From IMG/VR virus record IMGVR_UViG_3300043029_000019: a DNA stretch of 20,000 nt. One strand, given 5' to 3'. How positions within the stretch are numbered: the first letter of the stretch is position 1; each line of letters starts with the position of its first letter. Below, piece after piece: positions 2,008 to 18,786 of the stretch. Both the position numbers and the translations under genes were made by a program. Below the pieces are notes generated by a model. It made no database searches and was not told the origin of the DNA. It worked only from the letters and a program-made list of their open reading frames with translations. The DNA comes from an uncultured virus (IMG/VR IMGVR_UViG_3300043029_000019) (Duplodnaviria; Heunggongvirae; Uroviricota; Caudoviricetes).

Positions 2008-4296
2008 TTAAGCGGAAATGTCCAGTTTACATTCGAGCACAAAGGCAATCCGGCACCTGGCACTGGCGGTAAACTTGAGCTTCTTCCATCCGGCCCCGGA
2101 GAAACGGCTTGTCAGATCGATGTTAAGCTGATCGCCAGAATACCAGAGTGGTGTTCCATACCCTGCGCCATTATCGGTGTTGACCGTGATGCTTGGACTG
2201 TTGCTTTCTTCGTAGATGCCGAAATCTATGCCATGGGTATGATTGGGTATCGTAACATCGTGCGTATGAGCGCTTGGAGATTCAGAAGTAGGATTCACGT
2301 AATTCGTACCTGACGCTACCGCACTAACTAAAGAACTGCCATAAAGATAAACCTGCGCGTTGGTACCGCTATACGCGCCATCCAGCGAAAACACATGAGT
2401 ATGCCCGTTGACCTCTGTCGTGGTTACTTTTGCGCCAGAACACCTTAGGGTGTTTGAATCTGCATAGTAATTAACGTATGACTTGCCTACATAACTGTCT
2501 GTGTAATAGGCTCTTATTTCATGATTGTGTCCGTCAGATGTTTCAAGAGTAAAGTCATAATAGCCGCTCGTTGCCCCCCCTGATTTGTAAAGATACAGCT
2601 TGCCATCTTGGTTGCCATACATCAGCGTGTAGCCGGCTGAATAACTGTTGCCCACAATCTTCAATGTATGGTCGTGGGTTGGGACTGGTTCTTCGGTTGT
2701 ACTTTGCACAGATGAACCACCACTCAACGTGGTTGTTGAATAGGCACGATACGGCATAATTTTGAAAGACAATCGCACCGACTGAATCGCTGTCAGCTCT
2801 GATAACAGCAAAAACGGCACTTCAAAAGGATAGGAAGCATCGAGCGAATCCCACCCATTGAATATCAGCGAATTACGCAATTCATTGTATTTGCTTGCCG
2901 TGATGCTGTTGGCTGTGATCTTTCCACCGGAGATATTGGCAACCTTGGCATCGTCCACGGCCAAGTCCTTTATAGCGGCCCTACTTACCGTCAAATCTCC
3001 GATCAGGGCTTCGGAAATAATGACAGCCGGCGACCCGTCGACCGTTCCGACCATGAAGGGAATCGTCAGTGGTTCGCCTTCGCTTGCCGTCGGCTTGACG
3101 ATGGCGAATTTGTCGGCCAGCATGATGATCTCGGATTCAATCGGGCCGGATGCCCCGCCGGATACCGCCACTCCCATGCCGGCGATATGACCATTGGCGT
3201 TGACCTTGATGGTGTGTTCGGCCTCCAGGGTGCCGTCAGCGTTCGCCCGAGCCGTGGCCTCCGTCTGCACGGCGGTATGGGCTGCAGCTAGGCCTGTATC
3301 AGGATCCTCCACGGTTGCTTCGAGTAATGAAATGTCGCCAGCCATAGCACTGTCGGCATCGGCTCTTGCCGATTGTTCCGTGGTTATCGCGGCCTCGTTG
3401 TCTGAAATCCCCCCCTCTGCCGCCGTGACCCTGACCGCCAATGCTTCCCTCGCACTGGCTTCGGCCGAATCTGCGTTCGCCCTGGTCGTGGCCTCGTCCT
3501 GAACTGCGGAGTGCGCCGCGGCCAAACCGGTCGCCGGATCTTCAACCACAGATTGCAGCGTCGTTACGTCCTCGGCGATAGCGTTGTCGGCGCTCTGCCT
3601 GGTCGAGGCTTCGTTATTGACCGCCGCTTCACGATCCGTGACTTCCTGCGCCAGACTATCGATCAACCCCGTTCCCGGGGCGTCGATGTTGTCAATGCGG
3701 GTATTGAGTGTGGAGGCAAGGTGGCTTTCGGACAATTCCCCCTGCAGCAGCTCCAAAACATAGGTAGGTTCATCAGCCGTTGCCGCAGAGGTTCCTGCGG
3801 TGGCGTTGAACGGACCGATGATCGAGGCATCCCACCTGTTGATCGCCCGTACCCAATAGAAATAGGTCGTGGACATGGACGAATCCGGGGGGGTGTCGAC
3901 ATACTTCAAGGCACTGGTGGTGCCAATCTTGACCGCCGTGCCTTGGTCGTCCACCGTGTTACGGAATATCTCATAGTGCCCGATATAATCGCCAGGAGAG
4001 GCAACCCACTCCAGCATAATCTGGTTAAAGCCCCCCGTCGCCGTGAGACCTGTCGGTGCCGAGGGGATGGTGTAATCAGGAGCAAACAGATTCGCTTCAT
4101 TCATAGATTCCTGAATGGCCTGATTTAGCGTTTCCTCGTCCACCGTGGCCACCACTTCCGTGGTCAAACCTGACGAAATTGCCGCTGTCTCTTCCGCAAC
4201 CTGCTTCAGGTGCATGATCAGCGTCTGGATCGCCCGCTTTACTTCGGGATCGACCTTGGACGACAGACTTGGGGTGGTGATGTTGGATGCCGTCAT
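2008..4296 (-). CDS. Tail fibre/tail tip host-specificity protein
   Basis: 762 aa. N-terminal FN3-like domain (PSAPTGLTATGG...YFYWVRAIN...GPFN), coiled-coil repeats (EATARANAD), a DUF1983/gpJ-C-like segment (HTIKVNANGHIAGMGV...ADKFAI...PFMV), and a C-terminal region with five HxH motifs. Confidence 0.8.
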   Translation of the reverse strand: MTASNITTPSLSSKVDPEVKRAIQTLIMHLKQVAEETAAISSGLTTEVVATVDEETLNQAIQESMNEANLFAPDYTIPSAPTGLTATGGFNQIMLEWVASPGDYIGHYEIFRNTVDDQGTAVKIGTTSALKYVDTPPDSSMSTTYFYWVRAINRWDASIIGPFNATAGTSAATADEPTYVLELLQGELSESHLASTLNTRIDNIDAPGTGLIDSLAQEVTDREAAVNNEASTRQSADNAIAEDVTTLQSVVEDPATGLAAAHSAVQDEATTRANADSAEASAREALAVRVTAAEGGISDNEAAITTEQSARADADSAMAGDISLLEATVEDPDTGLAAAHTAVQTEATARANADGTLEAEHTIKVNANGHIAGMGVAVSGGASGPIESEIIMLADKFAIVKPTASEGEPLTIPFMVGTVDGSPAVIISEALIGDLTVSRAAIKDLAVDDAKVANISGGKITANSITASKYNELRNSLIFNGWDSLDASYPFEVPFLLLSELTAIQSVRLSFKIMPYRAYSTTTLSGGSSVQSTTEEPVPTHDHTLKIVGNSYSAGYTLMYGNQDGKLYLYKSGGATSGYYDFTLETSDGHNHEIRAYYTDSYVGKSYVNYYADSNTLRCSGAKVTTTEVNGHTHVFSLDGAYSGTNAQVYLYGSSLVSAVASGTNYVNPTSESPSAHTHDVTIPNHTHGIDFGIYEESNSPSITVNTDNGAGYGTPLWYSGDQLNIDLTSRFSGAGWKKLKFTASARCRIAFVLECKLDISA

Positions 4297-8918: not shown

Positions 8919-9434
8919 TTAACCCTTTTGTTCACGCAGAATCTTGATCCGGTTACCAACCCAAGATTTCGACTTGCCGACAACTTCGCCGATCTTGGCA
9001 TAGGACATATTGGAATCGGCCATGTTCAAAATGGCCGCGTCCCGCTCTTCGTCGGTCATACCCTCGCCCCCCTCTTCCTCCAACGGTTCGCCGTCTTCCG
9101 TGCCTTCCTCAACCGTATCGTGCTGGCCGGCGTCATCTCCGTCGGGCGCATCGGTATCAAGTTCAGGCGTCGTATCAGGTTCGGGATTAGACTCGGGTTC
9201 TACAGTATCCGGTTCAGTCCCAGGCAGTGATTTTGGGTCCGGACTTTCCGACGGTTTGACGCCTTCGTACTTGCGGTACAACCCCGTCACCATCAGTTGA
9301 GTGATGTGGGAATCGTTGGTCACGTCACACACTGCGGCACCACCAAAATCGGGATTTTCCTTGAAGCAATAATCGAACTTGTCGATGGTTACAAAGGTAG
9401 GTCCGTCTCTCTTGATCAGGCACTCAATCCACAT
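8919..9434 (-). CDS. Hypothetical protein with acidic linker and C-terminal helix-turn-helix
   Basis: Likely start ATG 9434 (MWIECLIKRDG) after an AGGAGG RBS; C-terminal MSYAKIGEVVGKSKSWVGNRIK HTH pattern. Confidence 0.65.
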   Translation of the reverse strand: MWIECLIKRDGPTFVTIDKFDYCFKENPDFGGAAVCDVTNDSHITQLMVTGLYRKYEGVKPSESPDPKSLPGTEPDTVEPESNPEPDTTPELDTDAPDGDDAGQHDTVEEGTEDGEPLEEEGGEGMTDEERDAAILNMADSNMSYAKIGEVVGKSKSWVGNRIKILREQKG

Positions 9435-9491
9435 GGGTTCAGTCCTCCTGAACTTGTGTAGGGGCGAGTTCCCCCGCCCCATGATTTAGGG

Positions 9492-9929
9492 TTATGCCGG
9501 CACCGACAACGATTTGAGGCGCAGTTTTCCGGCTGCAGGAGTGCCAGCCGCGGTAACGACCTTGGCACCGATAACACGATCCGATGTGGATGCCGCAAGC
9601 TGCAAACCGGAAACGGTGTCGGCCCGCGCAACCCCACCAGCCTGTCCGACAGTGGACGAGTCGATGAGATTGGTAGACGCCACCAGATCGTCCCCATCAT
9701 CATTGACGATACCGACGCTCAACACCAAAGCGGTTGCATCATCGAGGTCATCCGCTTCCAGGATGGCATCAACAGGTTTGTGACCTGCCGGAAGATGGGC
9801 CAGTTTGACAATATCGTTCTGAGCCAGGGAATCGGGCAGCGAGTATTCACCCTCGTTGCACACCACCACCCCGGCTTGACCACCGGTAACGGGCGGGCGG
9901 GAAAGGTTTTTTGCGGTAAACAGAGCCAT
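9492..9929 (-). CDS. Putative capsid decoration/cement protein
   Basis: 145 aa, beta-rich (NDIVKLAHLPAG...DDLD...LSVG), directly after the major capsid gene; AAGGAG RBS. Confidence 0.6.
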   Translation of the reverse strand: MALFTAKNLSRPPVTGGQAGVVVCNEGEYSLPDSLAQNDIVKLAHLPAGHKPVDAILEADDLDDATALVLSVGIVNDDGDDLVASTNLIDSSTVGQAGGVARADTVSGLQLAASTSDRVIGAKVVTAAGTPAAGKLRLKSLSVPA

Positions 9930-9996: not shown

Positions 9997-11106
9997 TTAA
10001 ATAGACGGGGCAGCCGCAGCGGTATCGATGGCGTATACGCCGAAATCGACGCCGTTGAACGTACACTTTTTAAAGCCCCAGATACACGAGGTCGAGATGA
10101 TGATCTCGTTGTCGTTATCCTCGGTGCCTTCGTACCAGTCGAAGCGCAGACCGACGCCGCCCTTGGAGCCGAACGCCACTGCGCCAGCCTGACGGCCAAG
10201 CACCAGAGCGCGGGCTGCGGCCACGTCGCCACCGCTGCCGTAGTCGGAGAATCGGATAATGCCTTCTTCCTCCTGCAGCACCATGTTGCCGTACTTGCCG
10301 AGGGAGTTTTTGAAAATATCCGCATCCCGACCGACAGCATTGGCCAGAGCTTTCTGCAGGTCCATCCATTGTCCGGTACCGGTATTGGTGCGCAGATCCT
10401 CGGCCTGCTGGGGATTCATCATGCACACATAGTGCTTTTCGCCGTTGATCATGACCGGCTGCAGTTTGGGAGTCCCCTGGGAACCGCCGCCCATGAGTTT
10501 GATAGCCGTCCCAACCTTGTCGAGTTCGGTCAGGGTCATGGTGTCGGTGCTGGCCAACGTCGCCTTGGTTTTACCGCCGCCGTAGCGGATATGGTAGCTA
10601 TCCGGAGCCGACAGGCTGTTGTTAGCGCGACCGGTCCAGTCGGTGTCGTAAACGAAATCATCGTTTACGCCGCGGGCCCCCGACAGATACATGAACACAC
10701 ACTCGGAGAATGCCCGTGCCCACCATTCGGACATGCGCGCCTTGGCGGTATTCCGCATGGAATGCAGGGTACGCTTCCGGGTCATGCGCCCGCCGCCATT
10801 GACGCCGCCGCGCATCTGGTCGATATAGACCGAATCCGAGTAGAATTTCAGCGCTTCTTCGGTCCCGCGCTGCTTGTTGTCCCCCTCTATGGGCCTCTGT
10901 TTGAGCTGTACCGACAGATCGTAAGTGATCTGTTCGCCGGCATCGCTTTCGAGCTCGTCCAGTTGGACAATGGGGGCTTGGGCTGCCTCGCCTTTGCCGA
11001 TGTACTTCCGGTTCCAGGGGTTTTGCCGGGCAACATCGACGGCCATCATGCCGGAGTACCGTTTGACCGCCTTGGGGTCGCCCAGGCCAACGATGGATCT
11101 CGCCAT
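9997..11106 (-). CDS. Major capsid protein, N4-gp56/DUF4043-like family
   Basis: 369 aa; DPKAVKRYS, ELESDAGEQITYDL, EGDN..RGTEEALKFYSD.VYIDQMR.GV and DFGVYAIDTA; follows the scaffold. Confidence 0.9.
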   Translation of the reverse strand: MARSIVGLGDPKAVKRYSGMMAVDVARQNPWNRKYIGKGEAAQAPIVQLDELESDAGEQITYDLSVQLKQRPIEGDNKQRGTEEALKFYSDSVYIDQMRGGVNGGGRMTRKRTLHSMRNTAKARMSEWWARAFSECVFMYLSGARGVNDDFVYDTDWTGRANNSLSAPDSYHIRYGGGKTKATLASTDTMTLTELDKVGTAIKLMGGGSQGTPKLQPVMINGEKHYVCMMNPQQAEDLRTNTGTGQWMDLQKALANAVGRDADIFKNSLGKYGNMVLQEEEGIIRFSDYGSGGDVAAARALVLGRQAGAVAFGSKGGVGLRFDWYEGTEDNDNEIIISTSCIWGFKKCTFNGVDFGVYAIDTAAAAPSI

Positions 11107-11127
11107 GGGTTCATCCTTTCTGTGTGC

Positions 11128-11141
11128 GGCACTCCAGCGCC
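11128..11141 (-). promoter_or_regulatory. GGA-loop hairpin upstream of the capsid RBS (candidate CsrA-type operator)
   Basis: Minus strand GGCGC-TGGA-GTGCC (5 bp, one G-U pair), followed about 10 nt later by the SD AAGGATG. Confidence 0.5.
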
Positions 11142-11150
11142 AGGGTTAAT

Positions 11151-11327
11151 TTATCGGGCTTTCCTCAGCCCTTCTTGTTTTTCGTCCCTCTCAATCGGGA
11201 CGGACCTATCCGCTTCTATACGCAGCCGGACGCGCTGACCGCTCTTTTCCTCCACCGCGACCTTAGCCTTGCCGCCTATCTTGATGGCCTCACCCGGCCG
11301 CAAATCCAAAAACAGCCTGCACGTCAC
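11151..11327 (-). CDS. CsrA/RsmA-like RNA-binding protein (58 aa)
   Basis: GTG start after a GAGG RBS. MTCRLFLDLRPGEAIKIGGKAKVAVEEKSGQRVRLRIEADRSVPIERDEKQEGLRKAR aligns without gaps to the CsrA pattern (L.R..GE...IG....V.V....G.QVR+.+.A...V.+.REE). Below the ORF-track size cut-off. Confidence 0.75.
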   Translation of the reverse strand: MTCRLFLDLRPGEAIKIGGKAKVAVEEKSGQRVRLRIEADRSVPIERDEKQEGLRKAR

Positions 11328-11333
11328 GGTCTG

Positions 11334-12380
11334 TTACCTCCCTGCCAAATAGCGTTCCTGCTGTGCCGGTGTCATTTTCTCCAGCGCCGTTTCCAGATCC
11401 ACACCGGTCAGCTTGTCCAGGTGGGCAAACTCGCTATTGTTGGCCTTCGGGTTTTCCACACCAGCGGCCGGCACATCGCCGAGGTTCGGGGCGTCCGGAG
11501 CCTTGGACTTGGGCTTGGCAGTTTTTTGACCCTTGTTTTTCTTGCCGCCCGCGTCGGGCTTGGGCTTTTCGGGAACAAATCCAAATGCTTTTTCCACATT
11601 GGACTTGGCCTGTTCCAGAATCTGCATATGGCCCATATTGCCGATCTCACCAGCCTGCACCATGCGTTTCACTTCGCTGTCCAGGGCGGCAAACTTGGTC
11701 GGGTTGCTCTCCTGGGTATAATCCTTGTGCTGGGACAGGAAGACGGTGACCGCTTTGCCCCAGCGCCGATTCTCGGTCTCCTGCATGCGCTGCTGATAAT
11801 CGTCCGACTTGATCTTGTCCACCTGCTCGTCATACTCGGCGGGCGACAGCTCACCATCGTTGAGTTTTTCGCGCAGGTCTTTGATCTGCTCCTGTGCCGC
11901 ATCGGAGTAATCGAACGGATTGACCGGTTCTTCCTTGTCGTCGTATTCGACCGGTTCGGGATCAGCATCCCCGTCGTCAGGTTCATCTCCTTCGGGACTT
12001 TCCTCGTCGGGGTCGTCCCCATCATCGGTGTCCTGCTCTTCGCCTTCATCGTCTTCGGCATCTTCGCCGTCGGGGTCGTCGCCCTCTTCTCCGACATCAT
12101 CCCCTTCGGGAGCCCCATCCTCCCCGCCTTCATCGTCTTCGGCATCTTCGCCGTCGGGGTCGTCGCCCTCTTCTCCGACATCATCCCCTTCGGGAGCCCC
12201 ATCCTCCCCGCCTTCATCGTCTTCGGCATCTTCGCCGTCTTCCTCCCCGTCATCGTCGGGCAGGTCGACCGGGGAAGCCGTGGCGGTCAGTTCAGCTTCG
12301 TCCACGTCGGCCTCGATGGCGGCGCGTTCCTCTTCCGACAAACTGGCCAATTCCTCATCGCTGTATCCGCTGGTGCTCAT
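11334..12380 (-). CDS. Capsid scaffolding protein (highly acidic)
   Basis: 348 aa; D/E-rich N-terminus; C-terminal PNLGDVPAA...EFAHLDKL.G.DLE.AL.KM...QQERYL; lies between portal and capsid. Confidence 0.75.
   Translation of the reverse strand: MSTSGYSDEELASLSEEERAAIEADVDEAELTATASPVDLPDDDGEEDGEDAEDDEGGEDGAPEGDDVGEEGDDPDGEDAEDDEGGEDGAPEGDDVGEEGDDPDGEDAEDDEGEEQDTDDGDDPDEESPEGDEPDDGDADPEPVEYDDKEEPVNPFDYSDAAQEQIKDLREKLNDGELSPAEYDEQVDKIKSDDYQQRMQETENRRWGKAVTVFLSQHKDYTQESNPTKFAALDSEVKRMVQAGEIGNMGHMQILEQAKSNVEKAFGFVPEKPKPDAGGKKNKGQKTAKPKSKAPDAPNLGDVPAAGVENPKANNSEFAHLDKLTGVDLETALEKMTPAQQERYLAGR
12041..12239. repeat. Perfect in-frame 84-bp tandem repeat (about 2.4 copies)
   Basis: Units start at 12041, 12125 and 12209; encodes EDAEDDEGGEDGAPEGDDVGEEGDDPDG. 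Confidence 0.95.
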
Positions 12381-12404
12381 GCTCCGTGCTCCTTTCGCTT
12401 TCCG

Positions 12405-14594
12405 TTATTGGTTGTTGTTCTGCGCAGGGATCCCCCGCGCTGCATCGTCCATAATATCGTCTGCCATGGTCCCAAGTGCCGGGGTCGCATGCAATGCCGA
12501 GGAAATCTCCAGAGCCTGCTTCATGCCGTCGAGCTTTTCGGTGAGGGCCTTGGCCATAGATGTGTTGCCCTTACCTAAGGCTTCCTTGGCCTCGCCTTCC
12601 AGTTTTTCAAGTTCAGCCATGACTTTACGCATCTGCAGTTCCTGATCCTGCTTCTGCTGTTCGTCAAGTTCCGCCTTTTCTTCCTCGCTCAACTCTTCAT
12701 CGTCTGGCCGCTGCCCGGTGATCTTGCGAACCCTTGCCACCACTTCATCACGCATCGGGATGTCGGCCATTTCCAAAGCAATATCCAGCAAGGCCATGGC
12801 CGCCTGTGCCATACCTCCTTGCGCCAGCGCCGTGATCAGTTCCATCATTGTTTCGTACATGGCCTGACGGACACTAGTGTGATATGCCCGCTCGTCAATA
12901 ATGAAATCGGCCTTGGCCGCTGTAACCGGATTTAGAACCTCTCCACCATCGGCATTTTCGTTGATCGTTGTGTATTCCGGATTACCACGCTCGTTGGTCA
13001 GCCGGAATGTCTTTTCCTCGTCGTAATACTGCTCGACCAGGCAAAGCTGCTTCTCGCCGGAGATTTGCCGCGCCAAGCGCAGATTGTCGAACAGATCCAG
13101 CGTTGTAAGGCTGCCCTGTTCCTGCCGCCGTTCAATGGCCGCGCCACTGACAGCATTGGTCTTGCGCCCCATCAGTTCATCGGTGACGCCGGATACCTCG
13201 GAAATGTATTGCGCATCCTGGCCCATCAGATTCACATACTCTTCGGCCAGGGTTTTATCGTTGCGGATCTCCAGGTTCTTATTCGACTTTTTAAAGATGA
13301 TGCCGTCCGGCCGCGCCACCTCTTCGGCCAGTTCGTCCACGTCGTCGACGGCCCCTTCATCGGCTATGACCTGGTTGGTGGCCAGAATAAACTGCGCCTT
13401 GGAACGGGCTTTATTCAGGTCAACCTGGGGATCGCGCAGGTTGCGCACCGCACCGTAAGGGGCGTTGTCGCGCTTGCGCCGATAGCCCCAAACAGGAGTG
13501 AGTGGAAAACGGTTGTGCCAATAAGGAAGCGGTCCTTCGTGCAGTAATTCACCGTCGAATGCCTTTTCGGTTTCCATTCCGGAGGGTGCGGTAAAGATCA
13601 TGTGCCGCATCACCATCATCATGCGATTGCCGACAATGGGAGCCAGGCCGTTCTCCACGGCCCACACAAGCACTTGGTCCTGCTTGTTGTACCAACAGCC
13701 TCGAAAAGGACCGTTGCCGCCGAGAATCTGCACCACTTCAGGGTTTTTGTACCAGCACTCGACCAAACGCACACGTTGGCGCCGGGTGCCGTCGCCGTTG
13801 GGAATATTGTCGACATAAGCGGTACGCGACTCGCCCACCACGCGCAGATCGTCATCGTCCATGCCGGTCAGATAAGACTGATTCTCAGCCGCTGCCTCCA
13901 AGACCCTCTCATGCCCCTTGAACAGCATCTTGGCCACGTCCAGATCGATGGACCGGCTGCGGAACAGGAAACGGGCGTCGCTCATGTCCGGCTCGACGCT
14001 CAGGTGGTCGTAATGAACGTTGCGCCAATTCTCGTAACGCACGAACAGCTTTTCCTCTAGAGGGTTGGGGTTGATCCCCTCTTCCACCCAGCCGACCCCA
14101 GCCGATACGCCATCATCGAACGCTCGGGACCATATTGAACGCTGGCGATTAACGTCATGCACGTATTTCAGCAACTTGGTCTTGCTCTCGGCACCATCAG
14201 CATCTTCCTTGCCGCGGGGAACCACCTTGAAATCGACGCGGGTGCGCTTTTCGCTGCCGGTGATCCAGGCGATGGCCGGCTTGATCTTGTTGAACACCAG
14301 CGGCGCCTGATTGCGGTCGCGCAGGGCCTGAATTTCATCTTCGGTCCACTGAATGCCGTCGCGGAAATCCTGATCTGTTGCCATCTCGACTCGGTTGTCC
14401 GACTGATAATCACGCTCGTCGATGTAGCGACACAGCATCTGCGTGAACCGTTTTTGCACTTCTTTCTTCTGCAAATGAGCCTTGGACCTGAGCGCCTGCG
14501 GAACAGGCTGTGCAGCCAAAAGTTCAGCCTCTTTGTCTACCCATGGCTGGCGGGCTTGGACTGTGCGTACATTCTCGATCTGCGCTTGATTCAT
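12405..14594 (-). CDS. Portal protein, P22-like
   Basis: 729 aa; DFRDGIQWT...R.Q.PLVFNKIKP, G.GWVE, PYG.VR.LRDPQ.DLNK, SG.AIERRQEQG and a C-terminal coiled-coil barrel. Confidence 0.9.
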   Translation of the reverse strand: MNQAQIENVRTVQARQPWVDKEAELLAAQPVPQALRSKAHLQKKEVQKRFTQMLCRYIDERDYQSDNRVEMATDQDFRDGIQWTEDEIQALRDRNQAPLVFNKIKPAIAWITGSEKRTRVDFKVVPRGKEDADGAESKTKLLKYVHDVNRQRSIWSRAFDDGVSAGVGWVEEGINPNPLEEKLFVRYENWRNVHYDHLSVEPDMSDARFLFRSRSIDLDVAKMLFKGHERVLEAAAENQSYLTGMDDDDLRVVGESRTAYVDNIPNGDGTRRQRVRLVECWYKNPEVVQILGGNGPFRGCWYNKQDQVLVWAVENGLAPIVGNRMMMVMRHMIFTAPSGMETEKAFDGELLHEGPLPYWHNRFPLTPVWGYRRKRDNAPYGAVRNLRDPQVDLNKARSKAQFILATNQVIADEGAVDDVDELAEEVARPDGIIFKKSNKNLEIRNDKTLAEEYVNLMGQDAQYISEVSGVTDELMGRKTNAVSGAAIERRQEQGSLTTLDLFDNLRLARQISGEKQLCLVEQYYDEEKTFRLTNERGNPEYTTINENADGGEVLNPVTAAKADFIIDERAYHTSVRQAMYETMMELITALAQGGMAQAAMALLDIALEMADIPMRDEVVARVRKITGQRPDDEELSEEEKAELDEQQKQDQELQMRKVMAELEKLEGEAKEALGKGNTSMAKALTEKLDGMKQALEISSALHATPALGTMADDIMDDAARGIPAQNNNQ

Positions 14595-18702: not shown

Positions 18703-18728
18703 TGCGAACTCCTTCGCCTCACAATTTC

Positions 18729-18786
18729 AGCAGCGGCAGCGGAGGTGAGTAGGCTCCGTTTTCGCCTGGCCAGACTAGCCGCTACT
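18729..18786 (-). promoter_or_regulatory. Predicted three-way-junction RNA structure in the HNH gene leader
   Basis: Outer stem AGTAGCGGC/GCCGCTGCT enclosing GTCT-GGCC-AGGC and CGGAG-N9-CTCCG hairpins. Confidence 0.45.

Follow-up and report, generated by a model that had tools for sequence, protein, structure and literature searches.

A CsrA-family gene of tailed phages and a conserved hairpin in the leader of the adjacent capsid gene

Described CsrA systems and their phage relatives

In the Bacillus subtilis CsrA-FliW-flagellin (hag) system, a CsrA protein sets how strongly the most abundant component of a large self-assembling structure is translated, and control is exerted by a partner switch. 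In phage Mu, the small protein Com activates translation of the late mom mRNA by binding a hairpin upstream and opening a structure that inhibits it; Com is a zinc-finger protein and is unrelated to CsrA.

The RNA recognition of CsrA itself is summarized in the accessible part of a review (PMC7652899), in which L4 and R44 are named as critical for RNA binding, GGA is invariant in the SELEX ligands, and paired sites are bridged over a range of 10–63 nt. Hairpins with GGA in the loop beside a Shine-Dalgarno (SD) sequence are given there as sites bound by host CsrA, and E. coli ymdA and moaA as cases in which CsrA activates translation by exposing a sequestered SD.

Phage homologues of CsrA have been catalogued and called morons or host-manipulating factors, and the published accounts, in the parts available, give no target or function for them. 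The closest are the genes annotated as "CsrA-like regulator" that separate scaffold from capsid genes in Bcep22-like podophages, which are called morons in the available text (PMC9144972, PMC10269572); for these, the same accounts describe no RNA target and state the role as unknown. Bcep22 gp54, DC1 gp46, JC1 gp47, CSP3 orf23, and the homologues in Ralstonia GP4-like phages and in the Pseudomonas phages Skulduggery and Itty13 belong to one family with the 58-aa protein described here, the Bcep22-like homologues being 41–63% identical to it (tblastn).

The locus lies in a 20,000-nt stretch (the window) of an uncultured member of the Caudoviricetes (IMG/VR record IMGVR_UViG_3300043029_000019), from a 37-kb contig that is estimated to be 61% complete. 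A first-pass annotation of the window had presented the csrA-like gene as hidden, which it is not: it is already annotated as CsrA-like or carbon storage regulator in nine of the 11 GenBank relatives examined. These 11 share with the window the gene order portal, scaffold, csrA-like, capsid, and virion structural protein, a scaffold-position gene standing between portal and capsid in all of them. What appears to be new is the RNA element, a hairpin in the capsid leader, for which no earlier description was found in the literature outside subscription journals and supplements. The features of the region are collected in Table 1.

Table 1. Features around the major capsid gene, in positions of the window
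Feature	Positions	Strand	Evidence or remark
HP3 hairpin GUUCAG-GAGGA-CUGAAC, SD in loop; possible further site	9437..9453	(-)	2 nt before ATG 9434 of phrog_13934 gene
Major capsid protein gene, 369 aa	9997..11106	(-)	Phage_capsid_3 E 1.4e-53; phrog_334 major head protein E 5e-95
Capsid SD AAGGA; possible second GGA site	11114..11118	(-)	Read from sequence; capsid ATG at 11106
HP2 capsid-leader hairpin UGGCGC-UGGA-GUGCCG; proposed operator	11127..11142	(-)	Covariance model 24 bits, E 5.8e-4
CsrA-like regulator gene, 58 aa	11151..11327	(-)	GTG start at 11327, stop 11153-11151
HP1 hairpin GGGCU-GAGGAA-AGCCC	11156..11171	(-)	Inside last csrA-like codons; modest support
Scaffold-position gene, 348 aa, acidic, tandem repeat	11334..12380	(-)	phrog_8246 E 1.5e-35
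SD GGGAGG of csrA-like gene	11337..11342	(-)	Read from sequence; 9 nt before GTG 11327

A CsrA-family gene among the head genes

The short reading frame that follows the scaffold gene and precedes the capsid gene is indeed a member of the CsrA family, as the first-pass annotation had proposed. The Pfam CsrA profile (PF02599) matches its product at 39.9 bits against a cut-off of 27 (E 4.1e-10), with residues 5-49 on profile positions 2-46 of 53, and the phrog_8397 "CsrA-like regulator" profile matches at E 4.4e-14. A six-frame search of the contig with the CsrA profile found it as a single copy (38.6 bits). Family members in the wider protein alignment are matched by PF02599 in 23 of 37 cases at E<=0.01. 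The SD of the gene (11342-11337) falls within the last codons of the scaffold gene.

The ungapped CsrA-like pattern with an arginine at the position of R44 was recovered in an alignment to RsmE (2jpp), which runs without gaps from query residues 5-52 to RsmE residues 2-49 and places L7 at the position of L4 and R47 at that of R44. Among relatives, the R44 position is held mostly by R or K, with exceptions. The N-terminal strand is divergent, as had been noted: T5 and R6 of CsrA are replaced by D8 and L9 while K/R7 corresponds to R10, giving LDLR in the beta-1 strand of the window protein versus LTRK/LTRR in RsmE and CsrA. Compared with the Bcep22-like proteins, those of the window's clade are shorter, with 58 aa and no C-terminal AAKIAA..GI tail.

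The predicted fold is CsrA-like as well. With the AF2 model of the protein (pLDDT 82, residues 51-58 at low confidence), the best 13 Foldseek matches are all CsrA, RsmA, or RsmE chains with TM-scores of 0.61–0.72 and rmsd of 1.0–1.7 Å over 39–47 residues, at E-values of only 4.7e-3 to 6.2e-2. A chain of the B. subtilis CsrA-FliW structure (5dmb_D) is among both the sequence and the fold matches. DSSP assigns three strands and no C-terminal helix to the model, whereas a CsrA chain has five beta strands followed by a C-terminal helix. A homodimer of the interleaved CsrA form, with beta-1 and beta-5 of one chain packing on the other, is also predicted: it scored 0.44 versus 0.00 for the best control, with run-to-run contact agreement of at least 94% and partner pLDDT of at least 69. 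This clears a mark that 20 of 30 solved homomers attain, against 1 of 23 single chains, and the prediction may draw on memory of solved CsrA dimers. The predicted contacts join residues 4-10 to residues 33-38 of the other copy, and residues 15-17 to residues 45-46.

A conserved hairpin in the capsid leader

Downstream of the csrA-like gene, the first-pass annotation had placed a GGA-loop hairpin ten nt past the stop codon, followed by an AAGGA SD. Both elements are present, and the hairpin (HP2) begins 9 nt past the stop codon. Its core GGCGC-UGGA-GUGCC spans 11141-11128, and a U.G pair extends it to 6 bp (11142-11127). Relatives were collected by searching viral contigs with an alignment of the capsid protein, and at the same position in their capsid leaders we found the conserved element nGCGC-[A/U]NGA-GUGCn. 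A covariance model trained on 46 distinct copies, HP2 being one of the 46 rows, has HP2 as its sole match with E<0.01 on both strands of the 37-kb contig, the runner-up reaching 12.6 bits (E 0.51). In the 46 aligned copies, 85.4% of the stem cells are paired versus 70.0% after shuffling (none of 500 shuffles as high), double changes occur at six of the seven pairs, and the covariation score is 0.394 versus 0.137. The three outer pairs, which were not used in selection, carry four to five pair types each. RNAalifold on 24 full leaders returned this hairpin alone, and no known Rfam family fits it, the sole match in 10800-11500 being a chance-level snoRNA (E 0.93).

The element is specific to position and strand. 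Capsid leaders, 10,098 nt in all, contain 48 copies of the strict motif versus 142 copies in 1,088,138 nt elsewhere, a 36-fold enrichment. All 68 model matches (E<=1) in 100 related loci are on the sense strand, as are 30 of the 32 in an independent hold-out set of 35 loci. Given that most SD sequences contain GGA and that 5-bp GC stems are common at 57% G+C, the window's hairpin and SD GGA might be a chance pairing beside a small CsrA-like ORF; we regard this as exceedingly improbable, and it is refuted by the covariation, the single match in the contig, the leader enrichment, the strand bias, and the recovery of the hairpin in independent loci.

The hairpin is real and conserved, and GGA is not the constant feature of its loop. 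Among 50 loops, AGGA occurs 25 times, AUGA 10, UGGA 8, AAGA 6, and ACGA once, so that GGA is present in 33 and AUGA, AAGA, or ACGA in 17, the invariant part being xNGA. The loop A, G, and A and a G.U second stem pair are conserved, which is more than stem stability demands. Among 47 distinct proteins compared by eye, no residue varied in step with the loop class. The second GGA proposed to overlap the capsid SD is likewise present in the window; 8 of 45 distinct leaders have none in their SD. In the window, the GGA of HP2 and that of the SD are 19 nt apart (start to start), and the capsid ribosome-binding site (RBS) is predicted to be open, with an unpaired probability of 0.65 over -15..+5.

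A further hairpin, HP1, sits 29 nt (GGA to GGA) upstream of HP2, and both spacings fall within the 10–63 nt bridging range of CsrA. Relatives in the clade have a hairpin at the place of HP1 with altered stems and xNGA loops (GGGCU-AAGAC-AGCCC in L007, GGGCC-GAUGAC-GGCUC in L006 and L008, CGGGC-GUGGAC-GCCCG in L010), and L035 has one without the loop motif; with six sequences in the comparison, the support for HP1 is modest. Elsewhere among the relatives, two hairpins stand 31–34 nt apart in five leaders.

A hairpin of the HP2 type also precedes the scaffold gene, the decoration gene, and a fourth head gene in some relatives, and the extra model matches that we inspected lie in the leaders, or across the start codons, of neighboring head genes. 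HP3 of the window is conserved in L004-L010, and the phrog_13934 homologue of L039 and L051 has a covariance-model match at its SD, the window copy of HP3 itself scoring only 10.7 bits (E 1.6) under the HP2 model.

The hairpin co-occurs with the csrA-like gene, as had been expected of a protein and its site. Of 102 related loci, 71 have a family-HMM match immediately ahead of the capsid gene. Requiring a stem of at least 4 bp, 51 loci have both gene and hairpin, 18 the gene only, 30 neither, and none the hairpin only. The 18 of 69 gene-bearing loci that lack the motif as scripted mostly contain other hairpin variants. The hold-out set gave the hairpin in 17 of 20 CsrA-positive versus 3 of 15 CsrA-negative loci. 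In one of those three, L140, inspection by eye showed a diverged CsrA-like ORF. The gene changes state just four times on the capsid tree, which leaves three to four independent pairs (sign test, p >= 0.5), so the co-occurrence could reflect shared ancestry.

Readings of the hairpin and capsid translation

Roughly half of the relatives have a competing helix, in which the hairpin's loop and 3' arm pair with the start-codon region. The duplexes within a leader average -9.6 kcal/mol versus -7.0 kcal/mol across leaders, and none of 5000 permutations was as low; this helix was scored by scripts, and its partner is out of register in the leader alignment. The capsid RBS has a predicted median openness of 0.31 in leaders with gene and hairpin versus 0.45 in CsrA-negative ones (Mann-Whitney p 2.7e-4), a contrast to which we give little weight because the G+C content differs between the groups (0.53 versus 0.45) and the statistic ignores relatedness. 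The leaders with the competing helix resemble ymdA and moaA, a likeness predicted from sequence: one fold closes over the start region, and the other, open, displays the loop motif, so that a protein bound to the open fold would unmask the RBS. The window's own leader differs in that the start-codon-sequestering helix seen in Bcep22-like relatives is absent from it and from its clade, and the hairpin is kept.

The hairpin may need no phage protein and be a stand-alone cis RNA element of the capsid leader: a two-state switch of translation, kinetic or thermal, a 5' stem-loop that stabilises the mRNA, or a site of processing. The CsrA-like protein would then act elsewhere, for example on host mRNAs, as in the moron reading found in the available text of PMC9144972 and PMC10269572. 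The independently supported helix is consistent with this, as is the second loop position, which covaries with the start-codon region and not with any protein residue. The co-occurrence is not significant in the tree-aware test, and L108 and L110 retain the hairpin, the 1.5 kb fetched upstream containing no csrA-like gene in either. However, the motif is absent from all 30 CsrA-negative loci of the first set and found in only 3 of 15 in the hold-out, and the window's clade keeps the hairpin without the alternative helix, which implies that something besides a switch maintains it. The conserved loop bases and G.U pair argue against a purely structural role, and the csrA-like gene is fixed in its position among the head genes across phages of Burkholderia, Ralstonia, Pseudomonas, and Ochrobactrum, which is unusual for a moron. 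We consider a cis element acting alone rather unlikely.

It is less likely still that the hairpin serves a host RNA-binding protein (CsrA/RsmA or another) and that the phage protein reprograms the cell, either by mimicking or competing with this factor or by titrating host Csr targets. Host CsrA binds hairpins of this kind beside an SD, according to the accessible part of the review (PMC7652899), and phage-encoded RsmA/CsrA may, as proposed in PMC8450108 (available part), take advantage of host Rsm control over CRISPR-Cas. On the other hand, one third of the loops lack GGA, and no chromosomal csrA is reported in the available text of PMC7366521 for Burkholderia cepacia and B. cenocepacia, which are hosts of phages with both gene and hairpin. 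No sponge RNA of the CsrB/RsmZ type was found at the Rfam gathering score in the 37-kb contig, which at an estimated 61% completeness may miss one. The only Rfam match at threshold there is an int-alpA RNA. The interference with host Csr suggested in the first-pass annotation is not favored: these Burkholderia hosts are reported to lack csrA, and the motif lies in phage head genes.

The absence of csrA reported for Burkholderia hosts of such phages (PMC7366521, available part) instead points to a target in the phage. On balance, we lean toward a phage CsrA-family dimer that acts within its own head-gene module, with the capsid-leader hairpin as its operator, and the hairpin is probably the binding site through which the CsrA-like protein controls capsid synthesis. 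Both the binding and the sign of its effect are what we infer from the comparisons above. The 58-aa protein would dimerise in the usual interleaved form and recognize the GCGC-[A/U]NGA-GUGC hairpin that the major capsid mRNA carries in its 5' leader. In the window, the GGA of HP2, possibly together with HP1, would be the upstream site and the SD would offer a second GGA on an otherwise open RBS, a likeness to the two-site targets of CsrA; the dimer would most likely clamp hairpin and SD and throttle capsid translation relative to the scaffold. The scaffold-position gene upstream is probably co-transcribed with the csrA-like gene, and no sigma-70-like promoter was found between portal and capsid (10900-12500). 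Bcep22, Heva, and Skulduggery differ here, with a TTGnnn-17-TAnAAT-like site (by eye) between the csrA-like and capsid genes, where the window's clade has no promoter. In the half of the relatives with the competing helix, the hairpin would be one of two exclusive folds, and binding would hold the leader open and may switch capsid translation on. Activation is at least as likely as repression in those leaders. The first-pass proposal that capsid:scaffold stoichiometry is tuned is partly supported: a role in capsid-module translation is the best reading.

Several observations count against this operator model. The loops are not always GGA, although GGA is invariant in CsrA SELEX ligands, and tolerate U, A, or C where those ligands hold the first G. 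No residue tracks the loop class, R6 is gone from the N-terminal strand, and an acidic residue has appeared there. Regulation whose sign differed from clade to clade would also be unparsimonious. The 18 gene-bearing loci without the scripted motif and the hairpins of L108 and L110 without a nearby gene do not conform to it, the AF2 model lacks the C-terminal helix, and the dimer score may be a memory effect.

More tentatively, the system may be a self-contained, protein-operated RNA switch. The hairpin, with its A-N-G-A loop and conserved G.U pair, would be the ON fold, and the competing fold would bury the start codon; the CsrA-family dimer, made together with the scaffold protein, would trap the ON fold so that capsid production has to await expression of the scaffold operon. 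With this operator also placed ahead of the scaffold, decoration, and other head genes, a small capsid-assembly regulon would result. Such a protein would have relaxed, non-GGA specificity and act mainly as an activator, also in hosts without a Csr system.

Under the operator model, the phage protein departs from bacterial CsrA in being phage-encoded and in having proposed targets that adjoin it in the head module instead of a global regulon. The parallel with hag would lie in the control of an abundant structural subunit, and the system differs in that no FliW-like partner was identified for the window protein; coupling to the state of capsid assembly is speculation.

Taken together, the csrA-like gene keeps its place in the head-assembly module in phages from several bacterial classes, accompanied by a conserved, covarying hairpin in the capsid leader, and what phage CsrA proteins do can be tested directly with a single protein and a 60-nt RNA. 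Should the link between the two hold, it would represent post-transcriptional control of capsid protein supply in tailed phages and a natural case of CsrA-family specificity drifting away from GGA, and this compact protein-RNA switch might be reused as a tool.

The csrA-like gene and its relatives

The window carries a tailed-phage structural module read on the minus strand, in the order small terminase, HNH endonuclease, large terminase, portal, scaffold-position gene, 58-aa ORF, capsid, virion structural and tail genes, and derives from a 37-kb linear virus record with a completeness estimate of 61%. The scaffold-position protein is extremely acidic, and a unit of about 28 residues, GEDAEDDEGGEDGAPEGDDVGEEGDDPD, is repeated in tandem within it (two full copies and the beginning of a third). 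Between the small terminase gene and the HNH endonuclease gene, the latter situated ahead of the large terminase gene, is a match to int-alpA RNA (Rfam RF02996) scoring 46.6 bits, where the gathering score is 35.8. Outside the virus collections, the closest capsid relative (L106, genome_contigs; 81% identity) is located on a 12-kb contig assigned by binning to a Desulfuromonadales MAG, and the sequencing runs containing the window DNA are labeled as oil-field, wastewater, aquatic and subsurface metagenomes; taking the binning as given, the two together offer a weak hint of the host.

The 58-aa ORF had been noticed in the first-pass annotation as a hidden CsrA-like gene retaining the arginine of CsrA R44. 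It starts at GTG 11327, 9 nt after a GGGAGG located inside the final scaffold-gene codons, and matches both Pfam CsrA (39.9 bits; curated cut-off 27) and phrog_8397, "CsrA-like regulator". The protein aligns with RsmE without gaps, keeping L4 as L7 and R44 as R47, the two residues named as critical for RNA binding in the available text of a CsrA review (PMC7652899). R6 is lost and Asp occupies the T5 position, in line with the divergent N-terminal strand noted earlier. The AF2 model, computed with 37 relatives, has a pLDDT of 82 and lacks the C-terminal helix; its 13 best Foldseek matches are all CsrA, RsmA or RsmE chains (TM 0.61–0.72), none with E ≤ 1e-3. Two copies are predicted to form an interleaved dimer, with a score of 0.44 versus 0.00 for the best control, contacts agreeing between runs by at least 94% and a pLDDT of at least 69. 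With the mark applied, 20 of 30 solved homomers pass, as does 1 of 23 single chains; solved CsrA dimers may have contributed in part to the result obtained here.

A tblastn search with this protein returned 43 phage records (Ralstonia 31, Burkholderia 10, Pseudomonas 2). All 11 GenBank relatives examined (Bcep22, DC1, BcepMigl, Heva, YL4, RPZH3, Claudette, GP4, Skulduggery, Itty13 and POI1126) have a CsrA-like ORF between the scaffold-position and capsid genes, annotated in nine as CsrA-like or carbon storage regulator, so the gene is already known rather than hidden. In the available text of the reports on JC1 and CSP3, the gene is labeled a moron, and one peptide of its product was found in JC1 virions (PMC9144972, PMC10269572). 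A survey, likewise in its available text, lists 30 CsrA-positive phages, calls for loss-of-function tests, and describes Burkholderia cepacia and B. cenocepacia as having no chromosomal csrA (PMC7366521). The portions available of these three papers name no RNA target for the phage gene.

The capsid-leader hairpin and its association with the gene

Related loci, 103 in all, were assembled by way of the capsid protein and from the GenBank relatives; L019 and L086 were dropped for short upstream sequence. Of the 102 loci with 121 nt or more ahead of the capsid start, 71 were found to carry the csrA-like gene by a family HMM derived from the initial hits. The capsid leaders of CsrA-positive loci share the hairpin nGGCGC-[A/U]NGA(N)-GUGCCn, with the loop at a median of 35 nt before the ATG. 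For covariation, 46 distinct copies were chosen by a script that fixed the closing C-G pair, the [A/U]NGA loop and a minimum of four pairs, leaving the rest free. Paired cells amounted to 85.4%, versus 70.0% after shuffling (0 of 500 shuffles as high), and pairing fell to 29–53% when the partner was shifted by 1–3 columns. Six of the seven pairs show double changes, the outer three occur as 4–5 standard pair types each, and the second is G.U in 37 of 46 copies (U.G 5, G-C 3, C-G 1).

The window hairpin is the sole significant match of the resulting covariance model on the contig. The model's 68 matches at E ≤ 1 in 100 related loci all fall on the sense strand. Capsid leaders contain the strict scripted motif at 36 times the density seen in the remainder of the loci (48 in 10.1 kb versus 142 in 1088 kb). 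Among 35 hold-out loci from bacterial genome and MAG contigs, which took no part in model building, 30 of 32 matches are on the sense strand and most lie in the capsid leader. The hairpin proposed in the first pass is thus real; the GGA loop ascribed to it holds for the window (UGGA), but the loop is not simply GGA across the relatives, since 50 hairpins in 45 distinct leaders have AGGA (25), AUGA (10), UGGA (8), AAGA (6) or ACGA (1).

The hairpin accompanies the gene. Among 99 loci placed on the capsid tree (stem of at least four pairs; L010, L024, L025 and L086 left out for short capsid fragments or flanks), 51 have both, 18 only the gene, 30 neither and none only the hairpin. In L010, a close relative of the window, the capsid gene matches in two pieces, 1259–1606 and 2549–3307; the gap of about 0.9 kb between them suggests an insertion (intron, intein or homing endonuclease). 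Most CsrA-positive loci without the scripted motif carry related variants with AUUAG, AGAA or AGCA loops, and the L048 clade has GCGCCG-AGGA/AUGAUA-GGCGC followed by gcAGGAgug. Among hold-out loci, the hairpin is present in 17 of 20 CsrA-positive versus 3 of 15 CsrA-negative ones; of these three, L140 contains, as judged by eye, a diverged CsrA-like ORF, and L108 and L110 have unrelated upstream genes on the opposite strand. Diverged CsrA-like ORFs are also present in L024 and L051, scored negative in the first set. The gene changes state only four times on the capsid tree, giving 3–4 independent pairs, in about two of which the hairpin follows the gene and in none the opposite; with so few changes, a tree-aware co-occurrence measure cannot reach significance.

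Further hairpins and promoter-like sites

Model matches outside the capsid leaders were inspected in 9 cases from the first set and 6 from the hold-out set. All are on the sense strand, in leaders or across start codons of neighboring head genes (table), and we regard the hairpin-bearing head genes as a possible small regulon. Where the scaffold start codon lies in an AUGA loop, operator motif and start codon coincide, and the proteins begin Met-Ser-Ala/Ser. In the window, a further xNGA-loop hairpin, 29 nt ahead of the main one, overlaps the csrA-like gene at its end.

Bcep22, Heva and Skulduggery (L001–L003) have, by eye, a TTGnnn-17-TAnAAT promoter-like site between the csrA-like gene (or a small inserted ORF) and the hairpin, which would place the hairpin close to a capsid transcript's 5' end, whereas none was seen in the window's clade. 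A GGTTCAnTATAGCC-like motif, which may be a phage-specific promoter, is located about 60–90 nt before the capsid ATG in CsrA-less relatives whose capsid gene directly follows the scaffold gene (L012, L015–L021, L059–L066, L080, L085, L089), and also in the L048 clade.

Features of the head module in the window and in related loci (L-numbers)
Feature	Sequence	Coordinates	Strand	Remark
int-alpA RNA	window	18716-18785	-	
P22-type portal	window	12405-14594	-	
Scaffold-position protein	window	11334-12380	-	
csrA-like ORF	window	11151-11327	-	
Major capsid protein	window	9997-11106	-	N4-gp56/Phage_capsid_3-type
Virion structural protein	window	9492-9929	-	
Hairpin GUUCAG-GAGGA-CUGAAC	window	9437-9453	-	perfect 6-bp stem, SD in loop, conserved in window's clade
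phrog_13934 gene, as listed	window	8919-9482		
phrog_13934 gene, probable extent	window	8919-9434	-	translation probably starts at ATG 9434, which is residue M17 of the listed ORF and the first position of the phrog_13934 match
Hairpin before virion structural (decoration-position) gene downstream of capsid	L034, L037/L038, L041, L053, L082, L114			
Hairpin at SD of phrog_13934 homologue	L039, L051			
Hairpin before scaffold gene	L024, L073			
Scaffold start codon in loop of GCGC-AUGA-GUGC	L111	95-118		
Same	L121	212-235		
Same	L127	206-229		
Same	L134	258-281		
Same	L136	241-264		
TTGnnn-17-TAnAAT region	L001	2700-2730		by eye
Same	L002	3110-3140		by eye
Same	L003	2695-2725		by eye

A second leader fold and the proposed regulation

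The hairpin loop and 3' arm are complementary to the remaining leader, at about -10 to +2 relative to the ATG, with z < -2 in 21 of 44 distinct leaders (mean -1.8; z > 0 in eight). This long-range helix displaces the hairpin in the minimum-energy fold of 18 of 23 folded leaders, by 2.5–16 kcal/mol, among them those of Bcep22, Heva, Skulduggery, POI1126, L011, L014, L036, L041, L044, L053, L056 and L063; the hairpin prevails in the window, L006, L010, L042 and L103. Hairpins pair better with their own start region than with those of other loci (-9.6 versus -7.0 kcal/mol; 0 of 5000 permutations, uncorrected for relatedness). Position 2 of the loop forms G-C (8), U-A (5), G-U (2) or U-G (1) pairs in the second helix, and position 2 of the arm U-A (16) or G-C (2). 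AUGA loops are thereby complementary to UCAU(G) at the start codon. Both hairpin and competing helix appear to be under selection, in a switch-like arrangement. The window's clade (window, L004–L010, L035) is without the second helix, with z of +0.2 to +0.9 for five tested leaders from the window, L004 and L006–L010 and -0.5 for L035; here the hairpin is the minimum-energy fold, and the prediction is for an open RBS.

The first-pass pairing of a csrA-like gene with a capsid-leader hairpin is confirmed, and in our reading the protein is devoted to translational control of the head module and would use the hairpin as its operator. That it binds the hairpin we consider slightly better than an even bet. 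In the window, the hairpin GGA and the SD GGA lie 19 nt apart on an RBS predicted to be open, with no promoter found between the csrA-like and capsid genes; this layout matches CsrA two-site repression, for which the available review text gives a bridging range of 10–63 nt (PMC7652899). We lean towards a dimer that throttles capsid translation relative to scaffold; if the protein does bind, we consider repression somewhat likelier there than activation. In the closed-fold relatives, the leader of the phage's most abundant protein would be off by default and need opening, for which dimer binding to the hairpin fold would be the obvious candidate, on the model of ymdA activation by CsrA as described in the same portions of the review; given binding, activation is more likely in these switch-bearing phages. 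As far as our literature searches reach, there is no earlier description of the operator-like hairpin, of its spread across the leaders of head genes or of the two-state leader. The conservation of the hairpin, this spread and the two-state leader argue against the reading of the gene as a moron.
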